The translations under genes were made by a program, and so were the position numbers. Below the pieces are notes generated by a model that made no database searches, was not told the origin of the DNA, and was given only the letters and a program-made list of their open reading frames with translations. Of a DNA stretch of 32,000 bases, positions 1-4,049 are shown piece by piece. Source of the DNA: Patescibacteria group bacterium (GTDB taxonomy: Bacteria; Patescibacteriota; Patescibacteriia; 2-01-FULL-39-33); NCBI GenBank assembly GCA_041662745.1, contig JBAZRV010000005.1, positions 30,001-62,000 on the forward strand, in the 5' to 3' direction. The first letter of the stretch is position 1; each line of letters begins with the position of its first letter.

Positions 1-1091
1 TCGGGATCTTTGCCGCTGGGAATGGTAATGACTTTGGAATTATAATTCAGGGCCGGATCAATGAACTGCGACAGCTTGCCGTGCCTGTCAAGGGAACTGA
101 CAATCCTGTCTTCCTTCTCAATATCCCGAACCAGCTCTTCGCCGCGATCGGTGGCTTTCTGGCCGGCCGAATCGGCGTCCAAAGCGAAATAAATATTATT
201 AGTGTAACGCTTGAGCAATTGCAACTGATCTTTGGTCAAAGCCGTACCCGAAGAAGCGACCGTGTTTTTGAAACCGTATTGATGGCAACTGACCGCATCC
301 ATTTGGCCCTCCACCACCACGGCGCAGTCCTGTTTTCTGATTTCATTCTTGGCTTGATACAAGGCAAAGACGATGGCGCTTTTGTTGTAAATATCGGTCT
401 GAGGCGTATTGACGTATTTGGCCGGCTCGTCTTTGGACAATGTCCGGCCGGTGAAACCGCAGACTCGGCCGTTGTGGTCAACGATGGGAAACATGATGCG
501 ATTCCGGAAACGGTCATAATACCCGCTTCCCCGATCCTTCCTGATGGTAAACCCGGCGGAAAATATTTCCTGTTCGGCGAACCCCCGCTTCCTCAAAAAC
601 TCAAACAGATTGCTCCAGTCGTCAATGGCATAACCGATTTTAAAATTCTCCATCGTTTCTTCACTGACGCTCCGGCCGGCCAGATAATCGCGCGCCGTTT
701 GCGCCCGCGGAGATTCTTGCAACACTTTCTGCCAATACCGGGCGGCCAAATCGCAAACATCGTACAGATTGTTTTTTCTGCTGGCGATTTCCGGCCGATG
801 GCGCGACAAAGTAACGCCGGCTTTCTGCGCTAAGATTTTCAAGGCTTCGGGAAAATCCATGTTTTCCAGCTTCATCAGGAATTCAAAAATATCTCCGCCC
901 GCACCGCAACCGAAGCAATGCCAACTGCCCCGGGCCGGCGAGACCATTAGCGACGGCGTCTTCTCATTATGGAAGGGGCAGAGCGCTTTGTACGCTCCCG
1001 CGCCGGCCGGCACCAATTTCAAGTATTCGCCGAGGAGCTCGGCGACGTCAATCTTGGCTTTGATTTGTTCTATTTCGGGACTGGAAGACAT
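1..1091 (-). CDS. dnaG: DNA primase DnaG, N-terminal ~363 codons (3' end lies beyond the window edge)
   Basis: Absent from the ORF track because it runs off the edge. Manual minus-strand translation from ATG 1091 gives MSSSPEIEQIKAKIDVAELLGEYLKLVPAGAGAYKALCPFHNEKTPSLMVSPARGSWHCFGCGAGGDIFEF..., the CHC2 primase zinc finger. Further downstream are RNRIMFPI and the TOPRIM-like VVVEGQMD...YFALDADSAGQKAT. Confidence 0.93.
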   Translation of the reverse strand, partial: MSSSPEIEQIKAKIDVAELLGEYLKLVPAGAGAYKALCPFHNEKTPSLMVSPARGSWHCFGCGAGGDIFEFLMKLENMDFPEALKILAQKAGVTLSRHRPEIASRKNNLYDVCDLAARYWQKVLQESPRAQTARDYLAGRSVSEETMENFKIGYAIDDWSNLFEFLRKRGFAEQEIFSAGFTIRKDRGSGYYDRFRNRIMFPIVDHNGRVCGFTGRTLSKDEPAKYVNTPQTDIYNKSAIVFALYQAKNEIRKQDCAVVVEGQMDAVSCHQYGFKNTVASSGTALTKDQLQLLKRYTNNIYFALDADSAGQKATDRGEELVRDIEKEDRIVSSLDRHGKLSQFIDPALNYNSKVITIPSGKDP

Positions 1092-1137: not shown

Positions 1138-1167
1138 TTGACAAGAGGCGCTTAAAAATGATAATAT
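1138..1167 (+). promoter_or_regulatory. sigma70-type promoter of the 1241-2932 operon
   Basis: TTGACA (1138-1143), then 18 nt, then extended -10 TGaTAATAT (1159-1167). It sits about 70 nt upstream of ATG 1241. Confidence 0.5.
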
Positions 1168-1240
1168 CCGACATTAGAGTTCTTTACAACTGAACAGAAA
1201 AACATAAACAAAACCGCCCACGGGCAAGAAGGAGAAAAAC

Positions 1241-1807
1241 ATGGATTTAATGTGTAACGACGCAATCAGGGCGACGCTTGGGTCTTTTGCGGATGTGAGA
1301 TATAAATATTTGGACTGGGGCTTGTTCCTTATCAGTGGTCCAAACAGTGCTGAAAGAGCTGAGATTCTGGCCAAGATAAAACGCCAGCTTCAATTTAATT
1401 TGGATCAAACCTTGATAATTACCGCCATGACGCAATTTTCAAACGGTCAACTGTTAGTCAATTTTGATTCTGTTACCGCTCCAGCCAACCCCTCCATCAA
1501 TCTTTCTGCCGATCCTCCGGCCGGTCCTTCCGTTGATCTTCCCGCCTGTCCTTCCACCAATCTTCCCGCCGAAAATAAAAAAAGGATTTTTCTTTACCAC
1601 GCCTATGATAGCAGTGGCAGAAAACCGGAACAAGGGACGATAATGGTTATCGCTACCGATGTAAACGCGGCTGATGAAACTTTAGCCGCCGCCGGGAAAA
1701 AATTAGCACTCTCTACGAATAGTATCTGCTGGGGTTGCGAGCTTAATGGCGTTGCCCTGCAAGAAACAAACGGCAATATCATCGCCTTGTTACCGCCATC
1801 GTATTAA
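1241..1807 (+). CDS. hypothetical protein, 188 aa, two halves joined by a Pro-rich repeat linker
   Basis: AAGGAG lies 6 nt upstream of the ATG. No TM segment or signal peptide. The linker PSINLSADPPAG-PSVDLPAC-PSTNLPAE is encoded by 24-nt tandem units (1524-1547, 1548-1571). No family recognised. Confidence 0.6.
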   Translation: MDLMCNDAIRATLGSFADVRYKYLDWGLFLISGPNSAERAEILAKIKRQLQFNLDQTLIITAMTQFSNGQLLVNFDSVTAPANPSINLSADPPAGPSVDLPACPSTNLPAENKKRIFLYHAYDSSGRKPEQGTIMVIATDVNAADETLAAAGKKLALSTNSICWGCELNGVALQETNGNIIALLPPSY

Positions 1808-1837
1808 GTTGAGGCAAAAAAACGAAGGGAGGAAGAA

Positions 1838-2293
1838 ATGAAAAACCATACAAGCGAAGCCAAGGATGAGCAGGGTACTCTCGGACAATTGTTGCGGGAA
1901 AAAGTCAAAGCCGGCAAACAAGCAAGGGAAGCTAAGGAACAAGAAGAACAACGCAAACGACTGGAACCGTTTATTAGCCGAGCTAACGATCTGATCAAGG
2001 AATTGCCCCGGATACTGGCAGAACGGGCGGATGAAGGAGCAACCAGTCACAACTTTCAATTCATTATCTTGCGTGATTTATTAAAAGATGAAATTAGCAG
2101 ACTCGGCGATGAACGCCACCAACCGCCCATAGATCAACGAATTATTGATTTATTCCGAAATGCTTATCTAACGCGATTTGTGCCTACTGCCGGAAAATTG
2201 CTTGGGGATTTCTGCAAGGATAATGATTTGGAGTACGATGATACATTACAAGAAACCCTCGGTCAAATCAGCGTTATCATCAGTTGGAAATAA
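1838..2293 (+). CDS. hypothetical protein, 151 aa, charged coiled-coil N-terminus plus globular C-terminus
   Basis: GGGAGG lies 5 nt upstream of the ATG and the gap to the previous ORF is 30 nt. The N-terminus is K/E/Q-rich (EKVKAGKQAREAKEQEEQRKRLE). No family recognised. Confidence 0.6.
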   Translation: MKNHTSEAKDEQGTLGQLLREKVKAGKQAREAKEQEEQRKRLEPFISRANDLIKELPRILAERADEGATSHNFQFIILRDLLKDEISRLGDERHQPPIDQRIIDLFRNAYLTRFVPTAGKLLGDFCKDNDLEYDDTLQETLGQISVIISWK

Positions 2294-2323
2294 AAACCCG
2301 CCAAAGCGGCAGGAGAATAAACT

Positions 2324-2932
2324 ATGCCTGAAGAAACGCCGAAGAACAAGCTTTATGAATTCCGTTGCTTCAGCCAAGTAACGGCCACCCAGGTAATAGC
2401 AATTGTGGCCGTTAATCTACAAACAGCTGTGGCAACCATGCTGAAGCACGGCTACCAAGTCGGTGGCGCTGACTTCTGGCTGGAACGAATCTATGACAAG
2501 GTTTTTGATCAAATCATCGTTACCGCTGAATCGGCGGAGTTATCCCCCGAGGACGCGGGATTGTCATCGCGGATTGAAAAAAACATCATCGAGCGATTGG
2601 AAGAATACCAAATAGAAAATCTAAAAAAAGAATTGCAAGCGCAGACGCTTAAACAGTTCGCCGATTTCTTGGCTGGCGCGAAAAACAAAACACTGAAATG
2701 CCATCCAGGGCTTTTGATGTTTGTCAGCCATCTAAAAACAAAGTCTGCTAATTGTTTCCCCGTCACCCTGGAACAAGTGCTGGCCTTGCCCCAATACAAA
2801 GAACTTGATTCGTTTTGCCAAAATAACGGCTATCGGTTAGAGGTTGATTTAAGGAATGAGCCGCTGATTAACGAGGGATTGGATTTTCAAATTCTCTATG
2901 TTGGCGTAAAACGGAAAACACTGATAGACTAA
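2324..2932 (+). CDS. hypothetical protein, 202 aa
   Basis: AGGAG lies 8 nt upstream of the ATG and the gap to the previous ORF is 30 nt. A terminator hairpin follows. No family recognised. Confidence 0.6.
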   Translation: MPEETPKNKLYEFRCFSQVTATQVIAIVAVNLQTAVATMLKHGYQVGGADFWLERIYDKVFDQIIVTAESAELSPEDAGLSSRIEKNIIERLEEYQIENLKKELQAQTLKQFADFLAGAKNKTLKCHPGLLMFVSHLKTKSANCFPVTLEQVLALPQYKELDSFCQNNGYRLEVDLRNEPLINEGLDFQILYVGVKRKTLID

Positions 2933-2961
2933 AAAAAATCTTTGTTAGCACCTTAAACAAA

Positions 2962-2992
2962 ACCGCCACCCGGAAAGGGAGGCGGTGTTTTT
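2962..2992. terminator. bidirectional rho-independent terminator between convergent operons
   Basis: ACCGCCaCCC-GGAAA-GGGaGGCGGT hairpin. It is followed by TTTTT on the plus strand and by TTTTGTTT on the minus strand. It lies between stop 2932 (+) and stop 3014 (-). Confidence 0.7.
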
Positions 2993-3013
2993 ATTATTTT
3001 GCGCGACAGGAAA

Positions 3014-3415
3014 TCATTTCTTCCACAAGCCGTGCAGATTGCAATAAGCGCGGGCGGTAATGTTTTCTCCGCTACGATTGAACTCCGCTTCGGGAGCATC
3101 GCCCGGCTTCAAATACCGGCGATCAACCCGACCACCTGCCTGCGCTGAAGCTCCGGTAGGCGGGTCAACAATAATCTCAATCCACTCAATATAGTGAACT
3201 TCTTCCATGGGGTGGAGCGTGGCGCCGATTTTGACTTTTACTCCTGTTTCGGTTTTTTCAATCACCGGCACATGTTTCTCCAAGGAAGCATCAACCGAGT
3301 TTTCCGTTTGCAAAATCATGTCTTGGCCGCAACAGACCAATACTCCTCCGCCGACATGAACGACTTCCACGATATTGCCGCAAACCGAACATTTATAAAT
3401 TTCGTTTAGTTTCAT
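3014..3415 (-). CDS. dfx: desulfoferrodoxin (2Fe superoxide reductase)
   Basis: N-terminal desulforedoxin-like [12 protein letters not shown]...[11 protein letters not shown] core EKHVPVIEK...[13 protein letters not shown]...[10 protein letters not shown]...YCNLHGLWK. Confidence 0.9.
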
Positions 3416-3464: not shown

Positions 3465-4049
3465 CTAGTAACTTTCGCACTTTAATTGATAAAACGCTTG
3501 AGCGTGGTTGCAGGATGGACATTCCTTAGGCGCTTCTTTGCCGAAATGCACATAACCGCATTCGCGGCATACCCACCAAACATCTACGTCTTTCTTGAAT
3601 ATGGCGCCATCTTCCACCTGTTTTAACAATTTAATATACCTTTCTTCGTGATGCTCTTCGGCCCTGGCTATGGCTTTAAGCCGCGTGGCAATCTTATCAT
3701 AACCCTCTTCCTCGGCTTTGGCGGCAAACTCGGGATACATGGTAACATGCTCCCAATTCTCGCCGGCAATGGCCGCCTTAAGATTGTCCGCGGTCGCACC
3801 GTAAGCCGTCGGCGCCTCGGCTTCAACTTTAATCGCCGCCAAATCCTCTTTGGAATGCTTTTTCAGCTTTTGGATTTCCTCAAACAGCTTGGCGGCATGC
3901 TCGCGTTCATTGTCCGCCGTAATCAAGAATATTTCAGCGATCTGCTCAAAACCCTCCTTTTTGGCGACTTTGCTATACATGGTATAGCGGTTTCTGGCCT
4001 GCGATTCGCCGATGAACGCTTTGGCCAGATTCTTAATGGTTTCCGACAT
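3465..4049 (-). CDS. rbr: rubrerythrin
   Basis: Diiron four-helix-bundle motifs (GESQARNRY, NEREHAAK, GENWEHVTMYPE, ARAEEHHEERY) plus a C-terminal rubredoxin-like CRECG...CPSC. Confidence 0.93.
   Translation of the reverse strand: MSETIKNLAKAFIGESQARNRYTMYSKVAKKEGFEQIAEIFLITADNEREHAAKLFEEIQKLKKHSKEDLAAIKVEAEAPTAYGATADNLKAAIAGENWEHVTMYPEFAAKAEEEGYDKIATRLKAIARAEEHHEERYIKLLKQVEDGAIFKKDVDVWWVCRECGYVHFGKEAPKECPSCNHAQAFYQLKCESY

Follow-up and report, generated by a model that had tools for sequence, protein, structure and literature searches.

What do three neighboring genes of unrecognized family contribute to a bacterium with a genome of 1.02 Mb, and what holds them together? This question is raised by a promoter-to-terminator unit at positions 1138-2992 of the window, as we call the whole 32,000-nt stretch of DNA that was analyzed (contig C5:30001-62000 of genome G000). 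The genome is 98% complete and belongs to Candidatus Buchananbacteria / Patescibacteria (candidate phyla radiation, CPR), an ultra-small groundwater bacterium. The unit lies in a slot between dfx and dnaG and consists of three open reading frames (ORF1, ORF2, and ORF3), each led by a Shine-Dalgarno (SD) site. The original prediction, made from the sequence alone, described it as an orphan operon for three unrecognized proteins of 188, 151, and 202 amino acids that appear to share shuffled modules. These sizes were confirmed, and neither Pfam nor NCBIfam gave a significant match. From this analysis, the genes are real, their architecture is modular, the content of the slot is variable, and its evolution is rapid.

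Modules shared among the three proteins

The three proteins appear to be built from three modules, called N, A, and B in the following, a division that has moderate support. Module N corresponds to residues 1-80 of ORF1, module A to residues 113-188 of ORF1 and 1-60 of ORF3 (1-66 as delimited in Table 1), and module B to the whole of ORF2 and residues 75-202 of ORF3. The profiles compared were built from 15 members of the ORF2 family (alignment A4), seven members of the ORF3 family (A5; three of them comprise the C-terminal part only), and eight members of the ORF1-N family (A6).

For module B, the original prediction had likened the C-terminal ~90 residues of ORF2 to the C-terminus of ORF3. 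Between the single sequences this likeness was not found: BLASTP of ORF2 against ORF3 returned nothing, and the Smith-Waterman score of the two C-terminal parts was ordinary compared with 2000 shuffles (P = 0.15). It did emerge from profiles and predicted structures. The top hhalign match joins residues 118-151 of ORF2 to residues 157-190 of ORF3, with P = 0.0038 for seven versus five sequences and P = 4.2e-4 for 15 versus seven. In this register, the end of the ORF2 helix at residue 128 and the start of the next strand at residue 132 fall on residues 167 and 171 of ORF3, in agreement with the ORF3 model.

The AlphaFold2 model of ORF2 (predicted local distance difference test, pLDDT, 89; predicted template modeling score, pTM, 0.74) has a helix at 15-65, a strand at 70-77, short helices, a helix at 98-128, and a beta-hairpin of strands 132-138 and 143-149. 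In the model of ORF3 (pLDDT 73), an N-terminal domain (strands 9-15 and 23-29, helix 32-41, strand 51-57) precedes a C-terminal part with helix 75-126, strand 132-138, a short helix, helix 156-167, and strands 170-181 and 186-197. The order of secondary structure elements is identical between this C-terminal part and the whole of ORF2. The ORF2-like part of ORF3 thus extends beyond the last ~90 residues of ORF2 to the entire protein, and the proposal that ORF3 fuses an ORF1-C-like with an ORF2-like protein stood in this wider form. Where a charged coiled coil had been said to precede the shared segment in both proteins, the models have a long helix, at 15-65 in ORF2 and 75-126 in ORF3. In the predicted fold of module B, this long helix would lead into a sheet of three strands with a second helix behind it.

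Further observations connect the two proteins. In a search of 48,161 PDB chains with VIA-align, the top-50 lists of ORF2 and ORF3 had nine entries in common (2ln3, 1ug8, 3hz7, 3k10, 8b0j, 9crn, 8xb8, 2eh1, and 2guk), with ~0.05 expected by chance, and the searches of AFDB clusters had one cluster in common. Where the helices align, both families retain a residue pair (F, L, I, or Y followed by Cys); the ORF2 family conserves F125-C126 and W150. A 135-amino-acid slot protein of the relative G006 matches both the N-terminal half of ORF2 (P = 7e-4) and the C-terminal end of ORF3 (P = 1.4e-5, probability 80%). We assign residues 75-202 of ORF3 to an ORF2-like module B with moderate confidence.

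A slot protein of 158 amino acids in G003 (L015:3406-3882), ending FYWERLGFDVKIQ...IVLQIVIGW, looks B-like by eye, with Trp for the conserved Cys; hhalign found no match between it and the ORF2 profile.

The proposed resemblance of the C-terminal half of ORF1 to the N-terminus of ORF3 likewise did not exceed chance in pairwise comparison (BLASTP of ORF1 against ORF3, nothing; Smith-Waterman score ordinary against 2000 shuffles, P = 0.24) and was recovered by profiles. Residues 132-164 of ORF1 align with residues 23-51 of ORF3 at P = 0.042, and at P = 0.0015 in an unchanged register after addition of a stand-alone homolog; none of 200 column-shuffled targets reached the score (maximum 17.5 versus 21.7). 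The homolog is an 83-amino-acid gene (L041:4725-4973; BLASTP to ORF1 residues 114-156, E = 8e-6) immediately upstream of the ORF2-family gene P0018 in the dnaG/dfx slot of two metagenome contigs (L041/L042). Within a full-length ORF1, the C-terminal part has one close homolog, P0008. These alignments support a putative module A common to ORF1 and ORF3. For both pairs of proteins, the top profile alignments lie in exactly the regions that had been proposed from the sequence.

Module N is defined in its family by a G-hydrophobic strand, a helix, an h-x-h-T-A-M strand, and an h-h-h-N-F-D strand. It also exists as genes of ~80 amino acids in G002, G003, G006, and G008 and on contig L028. In ORF1 it is joined to module A by a proline-rich linker encoded by a tandem repeat, which suggests a recent N-A gene fusion through repeat expansion. 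Between module N and module B or ORF3, hhalign gave no match, and we therefore do not claim module N as a miniature module B.

An explanation by chance or convergence of unrelated small alpha/beta proteins, which would leave three unrelated lineage-specific genes, appears improbable. The pairwise tests are indeed non-significant, the hhalign probabilities lie at 17-35%, the ORF2/ORF3 score is reached by four of 200 column-shuffled targets, and two-layer alpha/beta sandwiches are common folds; yet the scores climb with added sequences, the alignment register fits independent models, chimeric and fused relatives connect the families, and the Cys is kept at the aligned position.

Slot content and evolution in relatives

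The slot between dfx and dnaG differs widely among relatives. G004 and G005 have just one terminator hairpin there (~65 nt) and no genes, and five further genomes have two to five genes: N, B, and A-B in G002; B, B, and A-B in G001; N, an ORF3C-type B, B, the 158-amino-acid variant, and B in G003; an ORF3C-type B, a chimeric B, and N in G006; and a 170-amino-acid protein ending in N, followed by N, in G008. A close strain (contigs L046 and L048) has the gene order of G000. The three genes do not form a generally syntenic triad: the same order is found in G002 and the close strain only, with other combinations elsewhere and two slots empty. Reading frames are intact in all relatives examined.

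Nor is the unit strictly an orphan, since a search of 1.84 billion representative proteins returned 17 ORF2-family proteins at E <= 0.001 (14 clusters at E < 1e-10), and relatives within the genus carry all three families. ORF2-family members were found in two of the 401 genomes sampled from the class; the ORF3 family occurs in the same two, with two additional marginal matches (E ~1e-3). Module N is present in five of nine genomes of the genus, exclusively in the slot, in none of the other genera of the family, and on the metagenome contigs L028 and L045. Beyond the genus, genes of the ORF2 family stand alone, between pyrG and rpmA in G011 and beside a methyltransferase gene on L040.

The predicted shuffling of modules is borne out by the architectures found in relatives, which are N, A, B, N-A, A-B, and N-B. 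The N-A type is that of ORF1 and the A-B type that of ORF3; the N-B type, on L045, fuses N to an ORF3-C-type B (P = 1.8e-4 and 2.3e-4). These alternative fusions suggest a joint function of the modules and, probably, mutual binding. The model of module B leaves one face of the sheet and a charged helix of ~30 residues free, which would suit partner binding or dimerization. Following such Rosetta-stone logic, we consider it evenly balanced whether the modular proteins are partner subunits that physically assemble.

The adjacent gene pairs N+B (on L028 and in G002) and A+B (on L041/L042), each a gene of ~80 followed by one of ~150 amino acids, would also be expected of a toxin-antitoxin-like addiction module in which a small N or A protein neutralizes the B protein. 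The unit's own promoter, its strain-variable presence, and its fast evolution are in line with this. We nevertheless regard such a module as distinctly unlikely: several genomes have B genes on their own, a toxin would be covalently bound to its antitoxin in the N-B and A-B fusions, neither the ORF2 nor the ORF3 model has a nuclease- or kinase-like fold, and no toxin or antitoxin family of Pfam, NCBIfam, or PADLOC was matched.

Differing cargo stands behind one promoter. The sequence TTGACAAG...TGATAAT precedes the slot genes in G001, G002, G003, and G008 and on L041, and G006 has a variant -10 element (ATGCTAATAT). Every filled slot keeps this promoter and ~25 nt at the start of the leader, irrespective of the first gene.

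Based on Nei-Gojobori estimates between G000 and the close strain, the three-gene cassette evolves much faster than its flanking genes. The ratio of nonsynonymous to synonymous substitution rates (dN/dS) is 0.03 for dnaG and 0.08 for dfx, and ranges from 0.35 to 1.19 in the cassette, with 0.35 for ORF3, 0.39-0.71 for ORF2, and 1.19 for ORF1 overall. Within ORF1, the value is 0.50 for the N-terminal and 2.4 for the C-terminal module, where ~16 amino-acid changes face ~2 synonymous ones, a ratio not significantly above 1. Compared with G001 and G002, protein identity is 87-96% for the flanking genes and 41-60% for the cassette.

The two tandem ORF2 paralogs of G001 (L003:2080-3100) show 100% identity in a stretch of 233 nt that runs from the SD site to codon ~68, and ~55% identity thereafter. 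The break coincides exactly with the end of the long N-terminal helix, which points to a partial gene conversion or a swap of the 3′ half.

Rates of this kind might also be expected of reading frames that are decaying or non-functional and have stayed open by chance in a permissive hot spot between genes, an explanation to which the high values for ORF1 and its C-terminal module, the origin of the linker from a tandem DNA repeat, and the tiny size of the families would lend themselves. We consider it highly improbable, given that all strains have intact frames, the SD sites match the consensus and are correctly spaced, the promoter is strong and conserved, the model of ORF2 is confident, and dN/dS lies clearly below 1 for ORF2, ORF3, and ORF1-N.

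Transcription unit and boundary repeat

The original prediction had listed an own promoter, three SD sites, 30-nt gaps between the genes, and a bidirectional terminator; all were found in the sequence (Table 1). The two spacers, ORF1-ORF2 and ORF2-ORF3, are exactly 30 nt each, and the SD sites lie 5-8 nt before the start codons. The promoter can be read in two ways, as TTGACA-16-GATAAT or as TTGACA-18-TAATAT with a TG before the latter. The terminator hairpin is G+C-rich and has T-runs on both strands; its reading on the minus strand (2985-2966) comes from a program listing, that on the plus strand from direct inspection of the sequence.

Table 1 Features of the three-gene cassette and its flanks, in positions of the window.
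Feature	Position	Strand	Description
dnaG	3-1091	-	divergent from the three-gene block
Sigma-70-type promoter	1138..1167	+	TTGACA, 16-18 nt spacer, TG-extended -10 (TGATAATAT); 11/12 match
Leader	1170..1240	+	conserved 5′ part (ATTAGAGTTCTTTACAACTGAAC), first boundary-repeat copy (1205-1228), small hairpin, SD site
SD site of ORF1	1229-1234	+	AAGGAG
ORF1	1241-1807	+	188 amino acids
ORF1, module N	1241..1480	+	8-member alignment A6
ORF1, Pro-rich linker between N and A	1509..1571	+	24-bp tandem repeat, 2.6 copies (repeat family D2)
ORF1, module A and stop	1577..1807	+	
SD site of ORF2	1826	+	GGGAGG
ORF2	1838-2293	+	151 amino acids; stand-alone module B, 15-member alignment A4
SD site of ORF3	2311	+	AGGAG
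ORF3	2324-2932	+	202 amino acids
ORF3, module A	2324..2521	+	strand, strand, helix, strand
ORF3, module B and stop	2546..2932	+	order of elements as in ORF2
Second boundary-repeat copy and bidirectional terminator	2954..2998		repeat 2954-2977, hairpin 2964-2986, T-run
dfx	3014-3415	-	convergent with the three-gene block
rbr	3465-4049	-	convergent with the three-gene block

The three coding regions are flanked by an imperfect direct repeat of 24 nt. The core of the repeat, the exact 14-mer TAAACAAAACCGCC, occurs only twice in the whole 1.0-Mb genome, just before the SD site of ORF1 and just after the stop codon of ORF3. The terminator is conserved in relatives; its 5′ arm is the 3′ copy of the repeat, and its 3′ arm (GGGAGGCGG) resembles an SD site. 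On L041, a degenerate and a full copy lie on either side of a 46-amino-acid reading frame. The repeat may be an insertion or recombination scar.

Several smaller elements were noted around the cassette. A small hairpin (CCGC-CAAA-GCGG, 2297-2313) abuts the SD site of ORF3 in the ORF2-ORF3 spacer and could modulate ORF3 translation. In the region upstream of dnaG (1092-1137 and its equivalent in relatives), ATCATACAATAAATAC is kept in every relative whose slot contains genes. On the minus strand this stretch reads TTGTATGAT and resembles an extended -10 box, probably part of a dnaG promoter arranged back to back with that of the cassette. Hairpin-rich inserts of ~150-200 nt lie between dnaG and the cassette promoter in G002 (L002:2885-3275) and G006 (L020:2497-2830), with the sequences GTCATTCCGACCGGAAGT... 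and GCTGTCATCTCGACCGAAATGG...GGTCGGAATGACAAC. In G003 only, a 100-amino-acid GIY-YIG-type gene (L015:4925-5227; N-terminus YYVYITTN...LYIGVTNDL) is located between dfx and rbr.

Candidate identities and possible function

Scans of the proteins and whole alignments against Pfam, NCBIfam, PHROGs, and PADLOC gave no significant match, and none of the families of PADLOC-DB 2.0 was matched by any of six cassette proteins at E <= 1. The same was true for PDB sequence profiles, for Foldseek searches of PDB and BFVD, and for tblastn searches of phage genomes. Among AFDB clusters, Foldseek found only unnamed or uncharacterized models (E ~7e-4, template modeling score by query < 0.5). The ESM Atlas yielded nothing usable and has no model of ORF1. 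The three families are undescribed, in the sense that no described family or system was matched, which is not evidence of a new function.

Individual candidates were compared by their defining features. For an R3H domain (PF01424), there was no Pfam match among the three proteins or the 15 ORF2-family members; the semi-conserved R-H-x-P-P motif sits in a loop, and its spacing differs from Arg-x3-His. A KH domain would require a GXXG motif; ORF2 has PTAGK instead, its model shows one continuous helix at 98-128, and Pfam gave no KH match. Most members of the ORF2 family have GGGK before the F-C helix. No domain of type II toxins or antitoxins was significantly matched in Pfam, NCBIfam, or PADLOC, and the structural neighbors included no toxin-like one. 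Type IV pilins have a prepilin cleavage motif and a hydrophobic N-terminal helix, and TusA/SirA sulfur carriers a Cys-Pro-x-Pro at the start of helix 1; both features are missing here.

For a NUMOD- or IENR-type helix-turn-helix, the sole link is the repeat protein P0024, with E = 3.8e-4 summed over four repeats. P0024's own NUMOD-like match (E = 0.0045) fails the cut-off, and after the F-x-x-x-N-x-L motif the ORF2 model has beta-strands and no second helix. Residues ~130-182 of ORF1 gave recurrent weak, non-significant matches to the first RNase PH domain of polynucleotide phosphorylase (PNPase), with E-values of 0.008-0.15 per genome. The matched segments (G000:C6:14372-14521, L039:2373-2522, and orthologs) all belong to this one protein, and the matches probably reflect a similar strand-helix-strand pattern.

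The nearest folds to module B are the two-layer alpha/beta sandwiches of the R3H, IF3-C-like, and SirA(TusA)-like types (PDB 1ug8, 2ln3, and 3hz7). Module B has no sequence match to them, no R-x3-H motif, and no CPxP cysteine as in TusA, and it has one strand fewer than the IF3-C fold. It also adds an N-terminal helix of ~50 residues and is acidic, not basic. A role as small nucleic-acid-binding proteins with an R3H-, IF3-C-, Alba-, or SirA-like fold, acting on RNA or DNA and perhaps tied to the neighboring primase gene, seems quite improbable to us: the acidity of all three proteins (isoelectric points of 4.9-5.7) argues against simple binding. None of them has a signal peptide or hydrophobic segment.

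How could the cassette then work? In the explanation that we favor, the three genes would form one highly expressed accessory cassette in the strain-variable dfx/dnaG slot. They would encode acidic cytoplasmic proteins of small size, composed of three lineage-restricted alpha/beta modules that are recombined via gene fusion, gene fission, tandem duplication, and partial gene conversion. Modules N, A, and B would bind one another to give a hetero-oligomer, with contacts through the long helix of B and the free face or edges of the small sheets. The function of this complex would be dispensable and quick to diversify, and would most plausibly lie in genetic conflict (with phages, mobile elements, or in host interaction) and not in housekeeping. 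Presence/absence variation, duplication, partial conversion, and high dN/dS, as in conflict loci, favor a dispensable hetero-oligomeric accessory system; a role in conflict specifically is a tentative and doubtful assignment. Going further, the slot might be a dedicated expression site, with a single strong promoter and leader that are conserved, the duplicated 5′ arm of the terminator at the cassette boundaries, and gene cassettes whose three private modules are exchanged, fused, and diversified, for an undescribed, rapidly diversifying hetero-oligomeric conflict system of the defence, addiction, or host-interaction type that is specific to these ultra-small bacteria. We think this unlikely.

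Several observations weigh against assembly and a conflict role. The module similarities are short, 33-34 columns, with low hhalign probabilities. The shuffled targets that reach the ORF2/ORF3 score correspond to an empirical P of ~0.02, and the link between ORF1-C and ORF3-N consists of one 33-column profile alignment. Predicted structures cover ORF2 and ORF3. Module B occurs without N or A nearby in G011, L025, and L040 and can function, or at least persist, alone, and only N was found in the slot of G008. The dN/dS of ORF1 near or above 1 could be a mere loss of constraint. Models of defence and toxin-antitoxin systems were unmatched and no phage homologs were found. Among sequencing runs, the locus is contained in DNA runs from groundwater and in no RNA run.

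Strain-variable accessory slots between core genes are known as hot spots, including defence islets and toxin-antitoxin hot spots. The dfx/dnaG slot resembles them in its fixed core flanks, its zero to five variable small genes, its fast evolution, and its duplications and mosaicism. It differs from them in having no recombinase, no known defence or toxin-antitoxin domain, and no phage homolog, and in that its cargo always derives from three private module families and always stands behind one conserved promoter.

Lineage-specific protein families that have been assigned no role number tens of thousands in Patescibacteria; 54,343 clusters were reported for the phylum, 6,987 of them at the level of genera (PMC9132574). 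The cassette families resemble these in being genus- to family-restricted and devoid of known domains. In contrast to them, the three families described here are linked by fusions, slot, and promoter, and one has a confident predicted fold.

Orphan families at the level of the genus are very common in this phylum; what distinguishes this locus is its module shuffling, its fixed expression slot, and its tempo of evolution. It offers a tractable example with the marks of an arms race, namely presence/absence variation, mosaic paralogs, and high dN/dS. If the proteins neither assemble nor act in conflict, the locus would be one more set of orphan genes, and its value would lie in three new family definitions. 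If they do, it would provide a first handle on how small accessory systems diversify in reduced, host-dependent bacteria without recognizable mobile-element machinery.

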